DNA of 9,336 bases, from IMG/VR virus record IMGVR_UViG_2734482772_000015, positions 1-9,336 of that record; one strand, given 5' to 3'. The notes beneath the pieces were generated by a model. It did not search any database, was not told the DNA's origin, and worked only from the letters and a program-made list of their open reading frames with translations. Position 1 is the stretch's first letter. Every line of letters begins with the position of its first letter. A program made the position numbers and the translations under genes. The stretch comes from a virus (taxonomy: Duplodnaviria > Heunggongvirae > Uroviricota > Caudoviricetes). Positions 4,135 through 8,401 of this stretch are shown here, piece after piece.

Positions 4135-4149
4135 GTTCTTTTTTCGCCC

Positions 4150-4260
4150 AATTATTTTCAAAAAAATTACCGTGCACAAAAATTTGAGGGGGCGGTCGGT
4201 GTCCGGCAGGGACGGTTTCGTCCTGAAAACCACCCCCACCCCCTCTGACGGCCTCACCAG
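4150..4260. other. candidate cos / packaging-initiation region in the HNH-TerS gap
   Basis: The 285-bp non-coding gap (4138-4422) holds an A-rich tract (4155-4185) and a GC-rich segment with inverted GAGGGGG (4186-4192) / CCCCCTC (4239-4245) flanking GGACG-gtt-tCGTCC. The position between HNH and TerS is where cos sites sit in HK97-like phages. Confidence 0.35.
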
Positions 4261-5165: not shown

Positions 5166-6372
5166 CTTTTTCACCTTTAATTTCCACAGTCTGCTTCCAT
5201 GCCTGGCTGAACTCGTCACCCCCTTCACGCGGCGGCATACCCTCACGCTCACGGGCTTCGTTCGGATTCATGATCCCGTTCTTAATCCCTTTCTCATACG
5301 TGGCATAACGTTCGGTGGGTGTGGCGCGTAATAAATCGGCTGAATCAAACTCAACCAGATAACGGGTACCAGGTACGGGAGAAGCCACCAGCAAAGCGGC
5401 CTTGATTTGCTGTTCGAAGTTCGCCAGCCATGGGCGCATTGTCATGGTCAGAAACGCGCGGCTTGCCTCGCTGAAATTGCTGTAGGTGCTGTTGCTGTAT
5501 TCCTGCAGAAAAATAGGCGATACGTTGAACATGCGGGCGATGTCTTCAATGGAGAAGCGACGGGAGGCCAGCCATTCCGCATCCTGGTTACTCATTCCCA
5601 GTTGCTTGTAATCCATGCCCCCTTCAAGGATTGGCGTTTTTCCGGCATTTTTCGCCCCCTTGTAGCGTTCCAGAGCATCTAATGCCTGTTTACCTTTCAC
5701 GCCGTCCAGCCATTCGCCTGACGTGATAATCCCTGCCGCCATCATGCCATCTTTCATAATGCTGGCTCCGTGGCGCTGTTGAGCAAGGCCAAGCCCAAGC
5801 GCCTCACGGCAAATCGTGACAGGGGAACGCCCCAGAAAGCCATCATCCGAGGCATAGCGGAGATGCAGAACTTCTTCCTGTAAATACGTGCGCACCGTTC
5901 CTGTATAGGGTTCGGTGATGGTATAGCGGTATTTGTGTGCGCCTGTGCGTTCCGGTACAACACACCCCGGCGCATAAGGATGAAGTGATTTTGGCTGCCC
6001 GTCTTGCCCCCACTCAATAACCGCATAGGCGTTACCGTTCAGCAGGCAGTGACGCATCATTGTGCGTTTAAACTGGTAAGGTGTCTGGCACGAATTAGGC
6101 TGCTCATTCAGCAGAATATCTACCGGGTGACTGTCCAGCCATTCCCGCGCCTCCCTGCCCTTGTCATTACGTACCAGATACAGATAACACGGCATCGTGG
6201 CCACCGCCTCAGCGATGACAGAAACCGCGTTCATCACTGCAGGCAATGATTCAGCCGTCCCGGCAGAAACATATTCTCCGGATCCGGTATTCGGTACGCC
6301 GGACAGCGCCAGAAAATCATCAATGGACAGGTTACGCTGCTCGCTTTTTTTACGACTAAAAGGCCACCACAT
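5158..6372 (-). CDS. phage portal protein (HK97 family)
   Basis: About 404 aa from the ATG at 6370-6372, which lies 1 nt after the protease stop. Size and position fit a portal. The track's longer start at 6462 is a TTG and was not preferred. Confidence 0.88.
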   Translation of the reverse strand: MWWPFSRKKSEQRNLSIDDFLALSGVPNTGSGEYVSAGTAESLPAVMNAVSVIAEAVATMPCYLYLVRNDKGREAREWLDSHPVDILLNEQPNSCQTPYQFKRTMMRHCLLNGNAYAVIEWGQDGQPKSLHPYAPGCVVPERTGAHKYRYTITEPYTGTVRTYLQEEVLHLRYASDDGFLGRSPVTICREALGLGLAQQRHGASIMKDGMMAAGIITSGEWLDGVKGKQALDALERYKGAKNAGKTPILEGGMDYKQLGMSNQDAEWLASRRFSIEDIARMFNVSPIFLQEYSNSTYSNFSEASRAFLTMTMRPWLANFEQQIKAALLVASPVPGTRYLVEFDSADLLRATPTERYATYEKGIKNGIMNPNEAREREGMPPREGGDEFSQAWKQTVEIKGEKDE

Positions 6373-6373
6373 A

Positions 6374-6934
6374 TCACAACCCCGCCAGCTCAGACCAGCG
6401 ATGACGATTATTTCCTGTCGGGCATAATTCAGGGTGCTGTGCAAACAACGAACGGTGGGCAATCTCCACGCCAGATTCTGGATAAGCAGGCATCGACGTT
6501 ATTGTGATTTCACGGAGTTCAGCGGCGGTTACGGTACGCAAATACGGTTTTTGCGCGATACTCCACTCCTCGCATAATGCGCGAAAACCAAAGCTCATTC
6601 CTGTAATGTCGCCACGCTCCACCAGCGTAAGCACATCTTTTCCAAGCTGGGTATCCGGCGGTGTCAGTTCAAAACGTAACCCGGTGTTATCCTCAGTCAG
6701 TACCAGAGTGCCGGATTTGGTGCGCCCCAGCAGTTGGGTATAGTCATGCTCATACAGGCAGCGCACATCATTACCCGCCGCCAGATAGTCAGCAAAAGCC
6801 CCCGGCGTGAACTGTTCGCGGAATTCGTCCCAGATAATTTCTGAAAGGCTGTTCCAGCGAACGGCATACCCCACCAGCTTTTTATTGCTGGCGGTCAGTT
6901 CAGATGTGCGGATTTCAAAATCGGTGTTTTTCAT
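6374..6934 (-). CDS. prohead maturation protease (HK97 family)
   Basis: 186 aa with ATG at 6932-6934 and SD GGGGA. Size and its position between the capsid and portal genes fit a prohead protease. Confidence 0.8.
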   Translation of the reverse strand: MKNTDFEIRTSELTASNKKLVGYAVRWNSLSEIIWDEFREQFTPGAFADYLAAGNDVRCLYEHDYTQLLGRTKSGTLVLTEDNTGLRFELTPPDTQLGKDVLTLVERGDITGMSFGFRALCEEWSIAQKPYLRTVTAAELREITITSMPAYPESGVEIAHRSLFAQHPELCPTGNNRHRWSELAGL

Positions 6935-6953
6935 CGGTGTATCCCCTGAAGCT

Positions 6954-6977
6954 AAAAAAGGAGGCCGAAGCCTCCTT
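6954..6977 (-). terminator. intrinsic terminator / attenuator between the capsid and protease genes
   Basis: Minus-strand RNA reads AAGGAGGC-UUCG-GCCUCCUU followed by UUUUAG: an 8-bp stem with a C(UUCG)G tetraloop and a U-tract, lying between the capsid stop (6983-6985) and the protease start. Confidence 0.6.
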
Positions 6978-6982
6978 GCTCA

Positions 6983-8128
6983 TTACTCACCAGCCTGAAT
7001 TTCCAGAATCTTGATGGCGTTCGAATCCACCACACCACCGCCCAGATATTTCTGGGTATAGATGTTAATGAATCCGGGTTCGCTGAAGTCCGGACGGGTA
7101 CGCGTACCGGTTTCATGGTCAACGATGAAATAACCGCGCTTAAAGTCACCTACTGCAATCACACCGTCCGGCATAAATTCCAGATATTCAACCGGAAGCC
7201 CCAGCAGAGAATCAGGATCACCAGCCTGTAAACGATCGCGCCAGATGTAATCACCAGTGGCATTTTTCAGTTTTTGTGCGGAGGCGGCTGTATTTGAGTT
7301 CATCACCCATACAGCTTTTTTGCGGTACTTATTGCGCAGCGTAAATTTCAGGTCAATCAGCATGTCGGCGCTGAGACTGCCAGTAACTTTTTTCGTCTGG
7401 AGCGTACCGAAAGGACGGGTTTTGTCGTTATCCGCAGTGCGCGGGAACGCCAGGAAACCTTTAGCTTTTTTCTCGCCGTCACCGGAAACCAGATCCGTTT
7501 CTTCGGTATCAACGAAAGTGTCGCCAATTTCAGAAGATAACCAGCTCATAATATCGACTTCGGAAAAATCGATAATTTCCTGAGTGGTTTTCGGGTAAGC
7601 GTAGATCGGATACAGGCGGATGCTGACTTCGTTCAGTTTCGGCGTTGCCGTCTGGTTACGTGCCGCACCTTCCTCGCCATGCTCAACCACCGCGCCACCA
7701 GCGGAAACCAGTTGCTTAAATTCATTGCTGTGAATGGTTTTAACGGTACAGATTTTGCGCATCACCGATTCATCGGCAAGCTGGCGCATAATCTCTTTAT
7801 TCAGCTCGGGAATAACGGTATAGCCACCATCAGCCGGGACACTGCCGGACAGGTTGCGGGTTTCCCCGGTCAGAATGTAAGAGCGCAGTTCATCTTTGGT
7901 GATTTTCTCTTCGACGGAAACACCAGGCTGGTTACGTTCTTCATCCGCAACAGCTTCAAGACGGGAAATTTCTGTGTCGAGGGAATCGGCTTTTGCACGC
8001 AGTTCATCAAACTGTTTGCCCTCGTCATCGTTCAGGCTGCGGTTTTCACTGTCGGCTTTTTCCAGCAGGGATCGCATCTGGTTTTTCAGGGCGGTTTTTT
8101 GCTGGCGGAGTTCGATTAATTTCTTCAT
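6983..8128 (-). CDS. major capsid protein (HK97 fold) with N-terminal scaffolding (delta) domain
   Basis: 381 aa with ATG at 8126-8128. The first ~100 residues are coiled-coil-like and charged (delta domain), followed by a capsid-like body ending in a Gly-rich C-terminus. Confidence 0.9.
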   Translation of the reverse strand: MKKLIELRQQKTALKNQMRSLLEKADSENRSLNDDEGKQFDELRAKADSLDTEISRLEAVADEERNQPGVSVEEKITKDELRSYILTGETRNLSGSVPADGGYTVIPELNKEIMRQLADESVMRKICTVKTIHSNEFKQLVSAGGAVVEHGEEGAARNQTATPKLNEVSIRLYPIYAYPKTTQEIIDFSEVDIMSWLSSEIGDTFVDTEETDLVSGDGEKKAKGFLAFPRTADNDKTRPFGTLQTKKVTGSLSADMLIDLKFTLRNKYRKKAVWVMNSNTAASAQKLKNATGDYIWRDRLQAGDPDSLLGLPVEYLEFMPDGVIAVGDFKRGYFIVDHETGTRTRPDFSEPGFINIYTQKYLGGGVVDSNAIKILEIQAGE

Positions 8129-8198
8129 GAAGGTTTTCTCGTATTGGTTAAGATTCAGGACGTGAAACCAACACGGAGGGAGCGCCGCCCGACACTCT

Positions 8199-8247
8199 CG
8201 GCATCTCGCAGATCAACCCGGCATCGCGCAGGGGGTCAGGCGGCATT
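8199..8247 (-). promoter_or_regulatory. phased direct repeats upstream of the capsid operon (candidate activator site / late promoter region)
   Basis: CGGCATCTCGCA at 8199-8210, CGGCATCGCGCA at 8219-8230 and CGGCATT at 8241-8247 are spaced about 20-22 bp apart, 70-120 nt upstream of the capsid ATG in the 245-bp gap. Confidence 0.3.
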
Positions 8248-8361
8248 GTGGCGGCTCACGTCTGAGTGCCACACGCCAACATATACATAAAAATCAGTAT
8301 GTAAATATCAGCCAGAATCACTGAACAGCCAGAAACAACCACGAACAAATAATTTACAAAA

Positions 8362-8390
8362 CCTGAAAAGAAAACCCGGAAAAATCCGGG
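8362..8390 (-). terminator. putative intrinsic terminator after the 82-aa ORF
   Basis: Minus-strand RNA reads CCCGGA-UUUU-UCCGGG followed by UUUUCUUUUCAGG, beginning 12 nt after the stop codon at 8402-8404. The stem is short (6 bp). Confidence 0.45.
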
Positions 8391-8401
8391 CCTTTATCGC
8401 T

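Follow-up and report, generated by a model that had tools for sequence, protein, structure and literature searches.

A conserved terminator-like hairpin directly behind the major capsid gene in the packaging operon of capsid-forming PICIs

Intercistronic hairpins that stabilise mRNA are known from the REP elements of malEFG and from the puf and pap operons, and hairpins behind major capsid genes have long been known from phages such as HK97 and T7. In malEFG, the segment upstream of the REP hairpins outlives the downstream ones. In T7, a single, incompletely efficient terminator for T7 RNA polymerase is located directly behind the major capsid gene 10A (PMC6068830). The GenBank record of HK97 (NC_002167) lists the feature 5192-5213, behind the major head gene gp5, as 'terminator, putative', and similar putative terminators follow the portal, tail-terminator, major-tail and moron (Gp15) genes. 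The HK97 capsid stop codon is followed after about 6 nt by the hairpin GGGCGGG-GAAA-CCCGCCC and the run UUUU, and the ATG of gp6 lies within about 10 nt. Little further literature on terminators after major capsid genes was found beyond T7 and SPP1. The consequences of placing a terminator close to a stop codon have been studied with tR2 of phage lambda: moving tR2 from 28 to 5 bp off the stop codon decreased termination from ~90% to <10%, since a ribosome at the stop codon blocks folding of the hairpin, and full termination was seen above 27 nt (PMC4824070, Li et al.).

Here, we describe a hairpin at the corresponding position in a window of 9,336 nt (the whole stretch of DNA analysed, from IMG/VR record IMGVR_UViG_2734482772_000015), which its gene content and surroundings identify as the operon for packaging in a capsid-forming PICI (cf-PICI) of ~15 kb, located in E. 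coli between hpt and gcd. The head-gene families of both HK97 and the window match those named for the cf-PICI packaging module, and both loci have the same succession of capsid stop codon, short spacer, GC hairpin with a tetraloop, U run and next gene. The HK97 terminator is, like the hairpin of the window, a predicted one; however, the two hairpins lack sequence homology, and the capsid gene is the fifth gene of the HK97 operon with the head-tail adaptor downstream, whereas in the window it comes first, with the hairpin between it and the genes for protease, portal and terminase. The T7 terminator T-phi is likewise a single internal terminator after the most highly expressed structural gene and would follow the same capsid-excess logic, but it acts on T7 RNA polymerase, has a longer stem, is experimentally proven and is unrelated in sequence. 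The lambda tR2 reporters (PMC4824070) resemble the window in that a hairpin and a U run are found a few nucleotides after an ORF, with the spacing between stop codon and hairpin tuning efficiency; tR2 differs in being strong (~90%) when unobstructed, while the stem and the U run of the window are shorter. The REP, puf and pap hairpins share the position inside an operon, 3' of a cistron needed in excess, and the idea of differential mRNA stability, but they have no conserved U run and are not positioned like terminators, and REP sequences are dispersed, whereas the hairpin of the window is present in a single copy.

Since HK97, T7 and other phages have hairpins behind their capsid genes, this kind of element is already known, and the hairpin in itself changes no concept. 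What differs is the order of the operon, with the capsid gene first and protease, portal, connector, HNH, TerS and TerL behind the hairpin; the satellites placed the capsid gene at the head of the operon while retaining a phage-type hairpin behind it. A full-text search of the primary cf-PICI papers found no mention of a terminator, hairpin or promoter; the hairpin adds to the transcription map of these islands, whose published descriptions are silent on promoters and terminators.

The packaging operon and its intergenic hairpin

Over the query, the window is 100% identical to a locus of E. coli B1172, where an island of ~15 kb lies between gcd and hpt and encodes an integrase, HTH regulators, an Icd-like protein, a DUF927 primase-like protein and an SSB, followed by the genes from capsid to TerL. 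No tail or lysis genes were found in this ~15-kb island, and its gene content is the one described in the genomic criteria for cf-PICIs (bioRxiv 10.1101/2025.02.11.637232). The window's island is syntenic with EcCIEDL933, the island of E. coli O157:H7 EDL933, which is the prototype cf-PICI (bioRxiv 10.1101/2022.09.08.507074). Related capsid-protease junctions were found in 531 of 5426 complete E. coli genomes. Further marks of a cf-PICI would be induction that depends on a helper phage and transfer in small capsids of its own; a related 16.5-kb element has been deposited as 'induced prophage' vB_KppS-Ant. On the minus strand of the window, Pfam domains are arranged in the order SSB, capsid, S78 protease, portal, gp6-like connector, HNH, TerS (Terminase_4) and TerL, followed by the host gene hpt, and it is apparently the capsid gene that opens the packaging operon. 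At the identical B1172 locus, the RefSeq name of the capsid gene product is 'phage major capsid protein'. The features around the junction of the capsid and protease genes are the following:

8128..6983, minus strand: major capsid protein gene, 381 aa, HK97 fold family (Pfam Phage_capsid PF05065, 1.3e-60)
6985-6983, minus strand: capsid stop codon TAA
6977..6958, minus strand: terminator-type hairpin AAGGAGGC-UUCG-GCCUCCUU, read from the sequence and found by the consensus scan
6977-6970, minus strand: 5' arm of the hairpin, AAGGAGGC
6975-6960, minus strand: GC core of the hairpin, GGAGGC/GCCUCC, 6 bp
6969-6966, minus strand: UUCG loop of the hairpin
6965-6958, minus strand: 3' arm of the hairpin, GCCUCCUU
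6959-6954, minus strand: unbroken run of 6 U (UUUU at 6957-6954), followed by AGC
6947-6942, minus strand: Shine-Dalgarno-like AGGGGA, 7 nt upstream of the protease ATG
6934-6932, minus strand: protease ATG
6934..6374, minus strand: prohead serine protease gene, 186 aa (Pfam Peptidase_S78 PF04586, 7e-46)

A preliminary description of this DNA had placed a minus-strand UUCG hairpin with a U-tract between a capsid stop codon and a protease start; hairpin and U run are present at 6977..6954, and the Pfam matches (Phage_capsid, 1.3e-60; Peptidase_S78, 7e-46) bear out its naming of the flanking genes. The operon had also been called otherwise continuous, which is correct for the junctions from protease to TerL, where genes overlap or lie 1 nt apart, but not for a gap of ~118 nt before terS, which is rich in G and C runs. 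This gap and the capsid-protease spacer are the only two real non-coding gaps in the string of genes. The spacer comprises 48 nt and holds the hairpin together with U6. The hairpin begins 5 nt after the stop codon (UGAGC on the minus strand), and the first two U of the run are able to pair with A6977 and A6976. The isolated 20-nt hairpin has a fold energy of -13.3 kcal/mol with both A-U pairs included, and the GC core alone reaches -10.8 kcal/mol; the consensus scan recorded a terminator-like site with 8 pairs, 5 GC and a 4-nt loop. The position of the AGGGGA motif is occupied by GGAG in relatives, with GGAGTCC/GGAGTAC conserved in the spacers of the family, and the motif would allow an independent start of protease translation.

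Both strands of the window were searched for perfect stems of at least 8 bp with at least 5 G/C, a loop of 3-8 nt and, in the 6 nt that follow, 4 T or more, and exactly one such element was found, the capsid-protease hairpin. Among 2000 windows simulated with a first-order Markov model, the mean number of elements was 0.027, and 2.5% of the windows contained any. The T run is absent from the opposite strand, and the hairpin can therefore be regarded as unidirectional. Processing sites for RNase III are long duplexes of roughly two helical turns, about 20 bp; such a site was ruled out, since the stem has 8 bp and an extended fold gives just a few weak extra pairs. A dispersed palindrome of the REP/BIME type, which would occur many times in a genome, in intergenic regions unrelated to one another, was ruled out by the single copy in the window. 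In E. coli genomes with any match to the capsid-protease junction, the median number of matching places was 1, always with capsid and protease annotations, and this single copy per island argues against a dispersed repeat. In an Rfam scan with E<=1, the sole match was RF02610, a Brucella sRNA model, with 21.1 bits as compared with a gathering score of 382; the match is confined to the terminator end of the model (positions 282-312 of 318) and is a generic terminator likeness. A small ORF starting at the TAATG stop/start overlap (MSKEASASFF...) was rejected as a candidate gene, as its frame is kept only in the group of loci represented by L025; in the close L048 group, a difference of 1 nt breaks the frame, and elsewhere the ORF is missing.

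Conservation of the hairpin among relatives

Relatives were collected by searching one genome per species, as well as IMG/VR, with the protease as anchor, and those with the order capsid-then-protease were kept, which gave 228 loci with 88 distinct spacers; in three of them (L012, L013 and L189), the spacer contains an in-frame ATG, and the protease start was set by eye. A hairpin of at least 5 bp is located 1-14 nt past the capsid stop codon in 219 of the 228 loci, which come from Escherichia, Klebsiella, Enterobacter, Pantoea, Pectobacterium, Xenorhabdus and others. A degraded 4-bp version is found in three loci, and the hairpin is missing in the remaining six (L206, L213, L222, L238, L220 and L221), which have spacers of 8-18 nt and belong to Xenorhabdus/Photorhabdus-like lineages. 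Because these six short-spacer loci do without it, the hairpin is dispensable.

The loop sequences vary, with UUCG in 15 cases, another UNCG in 9 and then GAAAA, ACAAC, AAAA and others, so that the UUCG loop as such is not conserved. The stems change as well, but pairing is kept: the window group has GGAGGC/GCCUCC, and other relatives have GGGGC/GCCCC, GGGGU/GCCCC or ACCCC, GGGAU/AUCCC, GGGUG/CACCC and GGGGC/GUCCC. Some lineages carry unrelated longer hairpins at this position, namely AGCGUUCCUG/CAGGAGCGCU, and CAAGCGGUA/UACCGCUUG plus U7. Pairs were counted on two ungapped alignments, one for hairpins with a 5-nt loop and one for those with a 4-nt loop. In the 5-nt-loop class, 96.6% of the cells are paired, whereas sliding the partner by one column leaves 62-81%; both sides have changed in 4 pairs, and only 3 of 500 shuffles attain the covariation score. 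In the 4-nt-loop class, the paired fraction is 89.6% against 64-75% for the slid partner, with 2 pairs changed on both sides and a score reached by 10 of 500 shuffles. Covariation within the classes is modest, because the G-run and the C-run are nearly invariant, and the replacement by non-homologous hairpins is the stronger argument for selection on structure. This pattern of conservation means that the hairpin is under selection across the family, and that its structure rather than its sequence is selected.

A second kind of variation concerns the neighbouring genes. One type of island, represented by L026, matches the window at ~100% identity in the leader that precedes the capsid gene and again from the hairpin on, but only at 59-87% inside the capsid gene, with the divergent stretch between about 8000 and 6950; at the protein level, the identity is 100% for the protease versus 62% for the capsid. 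In these comparisons, the capsid ORF behaves as a cassette that could be exchanged between islands. A mosaic breakpoint thus coincides with the hairpin, with islands matching the window on both sides and differing across the capsid ORF, and this would be expected if the palindrome marked a boundary between modules or a joint for recombination, belonged to a dispersed repeat or had arisen fortuitously, with no role in RNA. Such an origin at the DNA level or by chance is hardly credible, however: chance is excluded by the simulation and by the conservation in 219 of 228 loci, the T run is confined to the coding strand, compensatory changes point to RNA, each island has one copy and no dispersed repeat, and a conserved intergenic element is in any case a place where a breakpoint is expected.

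In another locus (L103), an inserted ORF for an HNH_3/AP2-type endonuclease (1.5e-21) separates the hairpin from the protease gene, and the hairpin is still found directly after the capsid stop codon, which indicates that it goes with the capsid gene's 3' end rather than with the protease. This bears on a possible role in translation. The 5' arm of the window hairpin, AAGGAGG, resembles a Shine-Dalgarno sequence and the 3' arm, CCUCCUU, the 3' end of 16S rRNA, so that the stem is a perfect pair of Shine-Dalgarno and anti-Shine-Dalgarno sequences. When a ribosome terminates 5 nt upstream, the 5' arm has to be melted, and this frees CCUCC, which could pair with the Shine-Dalgarno-like AGGGGA/GGAG of the protease about 12 nt downstream; the hairpin or its melted arms could in this way modulate the loading of ribosomes at the protease start or uncouple protease from capsid translation. 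However, the likeness is limited to the subgroup of the window, and most relatives have GGGGC/GCCCC or unrelated stems. The Shine-Dalgarno sequence of the protease lies outside the hairpin in all members, the frame of the short ORF at the TAATG overlap is broken in close relatives (L048), and in L103 and HK97 the hairpin accompanies the capsid gene and not the protease. A translational element is therefore considered very unlikely.

Terminator character and expected effect on capsid expression

In all hairpins of the family, the 5' arm is G-rich and the 3' arm is C-rich and abuts U. Among 84 distinct spacers, U makes up 92/87/86% at positions 1-3 past the GC core and 58/50% at positions 4-5, with no U enrichment past position 5, and the U run is kept even where a spacer offers no upstream A for pairing. 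These three conserved traits, the G-rich and C-rich arms, the abutting U and the persistence of the U run, are specific to terminators. The median number of U in the 8 nt after the core is 5, and 17 of the 84 spacers have just 3. The U-tract of the family usually comprises 3-5 nt, the 6 nt of the window being the best of the short-stem class, as compared with the 7-9 nt that a passage in PMC3993855 gives for the U-tract of canonical terminators. Between stop codon and GC core, the median distance is 7 nt. In published models, the main determinants of efficiency are how good the U-tail is, the length-normalised energy of the hairpin and a G...C closing stack (PMC3643576); the closing stack is present in the window hairpin, and its energy and tail are middling. 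To call it a 'strong' and 'textbook' terminator, as had been done at first, overstates these properties, given a GC core of 6 bp, a fold energy of -13.3 kcal/mol, U-tracts of 3-5 nt in the family and a position 5 nt from the stop codon. With this short distance and a short U-tract, termination is expected to be incomplete and sensitive to the proximity of the lead ribosome, and the tR2 result at 5 bp implies that the terminated fraction could be very small under tight coupling of transcription and translation. The maximal efficiency is probably below that of unobstructed tR2, given the shorter stem and U run. The 8-bp stem and 4-nt loop fall within the ranges of intrinsic terminators, about 5-14 bp and 3-8 nt. 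By composition and position, the hairpin has the form of an intrinsic terminator, very likely a leaky one.

As the hairpin has this form, attenuation is the most economical reading of its function, and the likeliest role is that of a leaky terminator and/or a 3' stabiliser favouring the capsid mRNA. The specific proposal, to which we give about an even chance, is that of a leaky intrinsic terminator which also caps the 3' end of the capsid mRNA, thereby leading to more capsid than downstream message. Some RNA polymerases would stop at the U run, at about 6954-6951 (in EDL933, the corresponding 3' end would lie just after GCCCCUUU), which would result in an abundant capsid-only mRNA, whose 3' hairpin would shield it against 3'-exonucleases. 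Other polymerases would continue into the protease, portal, connector, HNH, TerS and TerL genes, and the protease would be translated from its own ribosome-binding site. The net result would be an excess of capsid over downstream message, which would suit a shell of about 235 capsid subunits as opposed to 12 portal subunits and a catalytic protease and terminase. The shell of EcCIEDL933 has 240 MCP positions, with one penton replaced by the portal (bioRxiv 10.1101/2025.02.11.637232). A probable attenuator before the protease, portal and terminase genes would be a simple route to about 20 times more shell protein than portal, and in the engineering of such islands into particles for DNA delivery, the hairpin offers a candidate point of control over the ratio of capsid to portal and terminase.

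The same capsid excess could be achieved by decay instead of termination. If the polymerase essentially always reads through, the hairpin could still block 3'-to-5' exonucleases after endonucleolytic cleavage, so that the capsid segment outlives the downstream segments. Several observations are in line with a function as stabiliser only: with 1-14 nt from the stop codon, the hairpins lie in the range where ribosomes repress termination, and the U-tracts of many relatives are poor, e.g., UUUCCAAG and UUGUUGGG. By capsid similarity (36%), the true phages closest to the window are Shigella phage VIT_AJPSC and Salmonella phage 118970_sal3, in which, as in HK97, the protease gene precedes the capsid gene in the usual order; they have a strong GC hairpin of 10-11 bp right behind the capsid stop codon with hardly any U run, its end being ...GCGCCCCUG plus UUCUGA. 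Furthermore, terminator hairpins are able to raise the expression of the upstream gene through stabilisation of the mRNA (PMC10204088). However, an exonuclease barrier needs no U run, and proximal U is kept at 86-92% even where no complementary A is present upstream; in addition, the constant arrangement of a G-rich 5' arm and a C-rich 3' arm is a terminator trait, and the window itself has U6. A pure stabiliser is thus possible, but on balance unlikely. Beyond the family, in distant contigs with the normal gene order (protease identity of 28-52%), a strong hairpin behind the presumed capsid gene was found in about 6 of roughly 25; the feature is recurrent, but not universal.

The structured leader upstream of the capsid gene

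A conserved structured leader in front of the capsid gene is a more novel feature of this region than the hairpin behind it. It is located between the upstream genes and the capsid start codon and is accompanied by the following features:

8392..8365, minus strand: second terminator-like hairpin, GGCCCGGA-UUUU-UCCGGG plus UUUUCUUUUC, read from the sequence (-13.0 kcal/mol)
8361-8348, minus strand: motif TTTTGTAAATTATT, conserved in every family member inspected
8305..8129, minus strand: structured leader of ~150 nt with a promoter-like site (folds, RNAalifold)
8305-8278, minus strand: promoter-like TTTACA-16-TATGTT, found by scan
8272-8248, minus strand: leader hairpin P1, GUGGC-A-CUCA-GACG-UGAG-CC-GCCAC, the first 25 nt (fold)
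8244-8235/8193-8184, minus strand: covarying leader stem P2 (RNAalifold)
8170-8159, minus strand: invariant leader segment TGGTTTCACGTC

Of 268 fetched loci, 117 have one exact copy of the 23-nt core of P1, in every case about 130-150 nt before the capsid ATG, and the 23-nt motif is present in at least 119 matching stretches of IMG/VR. RNAalifold predicted 18 pairs for the whole leader, 8 of which have compensatory changes, 7 of them in P2. The invariant segment TGGTTTCACGTC is complementary to the loop and the 3' arm of P1. EDL933-type islands have a leader of different sequence, but of the same design and with a long P2; their P1, GUGGU-G-CCAG-GACG-CUGG-G-GCCAC, shares the GACG loop, and its inner stem is fully compensated. 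The final hairpin of the EDL933-type leader, GUCCUGG...CCAGGAC plus U8, is located directly before the capsid AUG, and its 5' arm GCGUCCUGG is complementary over 9 nt to CCAGGACGC of P1. The z-scores of the leader folds are -5.3 for EDL933, -5.7 for a further island (L005) and -2.4 for the window. The leader matches no Rfam family, no match was found in 50,697 phage records beyond three cf-PICI-like deposits, and the leader is missing from most Xenorhabdus-type islands. A sigma-54 promoter at the invariant TGGCAC of the leader was considered and rejected, as the sequence does not have the GG-N10-GC spacing. From its sequence and predicted folds, the leader looks like an undescribed cis-regulatory element, possibly an attenuator. 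A precedent is Pseudomonas phage YuA, in which premature termination was observed in the 5'-UTR of a major head gene (PMC10914365).

If the leader does confer resistance to terminators, polymerases would pass the hairpin behind the capsid gene while the operon is on. This leads to an alternative in which the hairpin is a conditional terminator or insulator, i.e., a checkpoint and not a device for stoichiometry: in the uninduced island, it would halt leaky transcription by unmodified polymerases, so that no portal or terminase is made, and after induction polymerases modified through the leader or by a helper factor would bypass it. Lambdoid late operons are read through under Q antitermination, and HK97 late transcription is under antitermination of this lambdoid Q type; we know of no such system for a cf-PICI island. 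The presence of a conserved structured leader before the capsid gene, with its invariant 23-nt motif in 117 of 268 loci and the covarying P2, is compatible with such a checkpoint, as are the attenuator-like end of the EDL933-type leader (a hairpin plus U8 before the capsid AUG) and the annotation of several putative terminators in HK97-type late operons. On the other hand, neither an antiterminator protein nor a known antitermination RNA was identified, and the leader is without an Rfam hit and absent from genuine phage records. Moreover, most Xenorhabdus-type islands have no leader, yet still carry the 3' hairpin, and processive antitermination is not obviously needed, because the non-coding gaps of the operon contain one internal terminator-like site only. 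A conditional terminator is therefore rather improbable, and the leaky terminator that also caps the capsid mRNA remains the preferred reading.

A more speculative proposal, which we consider doubtful, treats the capsid gene as an RNA-regulated cassette, in which the leader acts as an attenuator or antitermination switch, the hairpin behind the gene is a second checkpoint and both elements serve as homology arms for capsid swaps. The leader, beginning at the presumed 5' end of the transcript, would be a switch read by a factor of the helper phage or of the island, and the hairpin would decide whether polymerases go on to the portal and terminase genes.

Further upstream, the second terminator-like hairpin is located just past an ORF of 82 aa, and an equivalent hairpin is found in EDL933; as predicted from its form, it would act as an insulator between the replication module and the capsid transcription unit. 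The adjoining motif TTTTGTAAATTATT is also found in EDL933-type and Xenorhabdus-type (L019) islands with one position different, as TTTTGCAAAT.

The leader RNA upstream of the capsid gene

The capsid gene of the island is preceded by a structured RNA leader, a new cis-regulatory RNA candidate for the packaging operons of cf-PICIs. The leader and the elements next to it are as follows (window coordinates unless stated otherwise):

8365-8392, minus strand: terminator-like hairpin GGCCCGGA-UUUU-UCCGGG plus UUUUCUUUUC, 3' of the upstream 82-aa ORF
8348-8361, minus strand: motif TTTTGTAAATTATT, next after this hairpin
8129-8275, minus strand: structured leader of ~150 nt, 5' of the capsid gene
8272-8248, minus strand: first leader hairpin, P1, with a GACG loop and the core TGGCACTCAGACGTGAGCCGCCA
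8244-8235 / 8193-8184, minus strand: second leader stem, P2, covarying
8170-8159, minus strand: invariant leader segment TGGTTTCACGTC
L003 (island of E. coli EDL933) 10441-10500, minus strand: final leader hairpin GUCCUGG...CCAGGAC, then U8, immediately 5' of the capsid AUG

The 23-nt core of P1 is found as an exact match in several genera (117 of the 268 loci), the second stem P2 shows covariation, and the invariant segment, which is located 3' of P1, is complementary to it. The leader of EDL933-type islands has the same topology as that of the window, and its P1 stems are compensated. No Rfam family was assigned to the leader, and it was not found in genuine phage records. In the EDL933-type islands, the 5' arm of the final hairpin (GCGUCCUGG) is complementary over 9 nt to P1 (CCAGGACGC). 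The layout resembles a terminator/antiterminator arrangement, a possible transcription attenuator that would precede the capsid gene.

The hairpin that follows the 82-aa ORF is missing from the list of the consensus scan. The adjacent motif was present in all family members inspected, including the EDL933- and Xenorhabdus-type (L019) islands, where it reads TTTTGCAAAT and differs from the window at one position. This motif may act as a promoter element or as an activator site.

Capsid gene exchange and the capsid-protease junction

Comparison of the window with the IMG/VR locus L026 and the L025 group, which comprises 26 loci, revealed a swap of the capsid gene cassette between ~8050 and ~6950. 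The flanking regions, namely the leader on one side and the capsid-protease hairpin and the sequence beyond it on the other, are ~100% identical, whereas the capsid ORF shows an identity of only 59-87% at the DNA level and 62% at the protein level. The reverse pattern is seen in the related locus L014, with 90% for the capsid and 81% for the protease. The breakpoints of the cassette swap coincide with the positions of the two conserved non-coding elements.

The junction itself varies between islands. In a single IMG/VR island (L103), the capsid hairpin and the protease start are separated by an inserted ORF (1959-2504), which encodes a homing endonuclease-type protein of 181 aa with an HNH_3 and an AP2-like domain and whose stop codon overlaps the protease ATG. 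The hairpin is wholly lost in six Xenorhabdus/Photorhabdus-like IMG/VR islands (L206, L213, L222, L238, L220 and L221), in which the spacer is reduced to 8-18 nt; these islands represent natural "deletion mutants", which could serve for a comparison of capsid and portal expression. An enterobacterial-type cf-PICI junction with an 83% identical protease was also found on a 798-nt scaffold of the Flammeovirga aprica JL-4 assembly (Bacteroidota), which is probably a contaminant contig.

The gap before terS and the stretch next to hpt

The operon contains only one other non-coding gap, and an additional hairpin lies towards hpt:

4135-4253, minus strand: non-coding gap of ~118 nt between the small ORF 3' of the HNH gene and terS
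915-890, minus strand: 11-pair hairpin within the ~540-1845 stretch

The gap contains T runs as well as G runs (GAGGGGGTGGGGGTGG, 4245-4230) and a complementary C-rich stretch. HK97 has the order HNH, cos, terS, and by analogy the gap is a likely cos site. The vB_KppS-Ant record stops 3' of the head-tail connector genes, and its fetched part contains neither an HNH nor a terS gene, which fits with physical ends near the HNH-terS gap.

A stretch of ~1.3 kb (~540-1845), which separates hpt from the last island gene, carries no annotation in the RefSeq record and contains ORFs without a Pfam match, e.g., 1271-1762 on the plus strand (163 aa). It could harbor the island end or the att site, or else an accessory gene that was left unannotated.

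The window matches the record of E. coli B1172 (NZ_CP120549) to 100% across 6700-7300. Coordinates are offset by 1 nt at terS/terL and by 10 nt at hpt, and small indels must therefore be present outside this region, including at least one in the gap 5' of terS, which is rich in homopolymers. The source of the window is probably a close relative of B1172 rather than B1172 itself.
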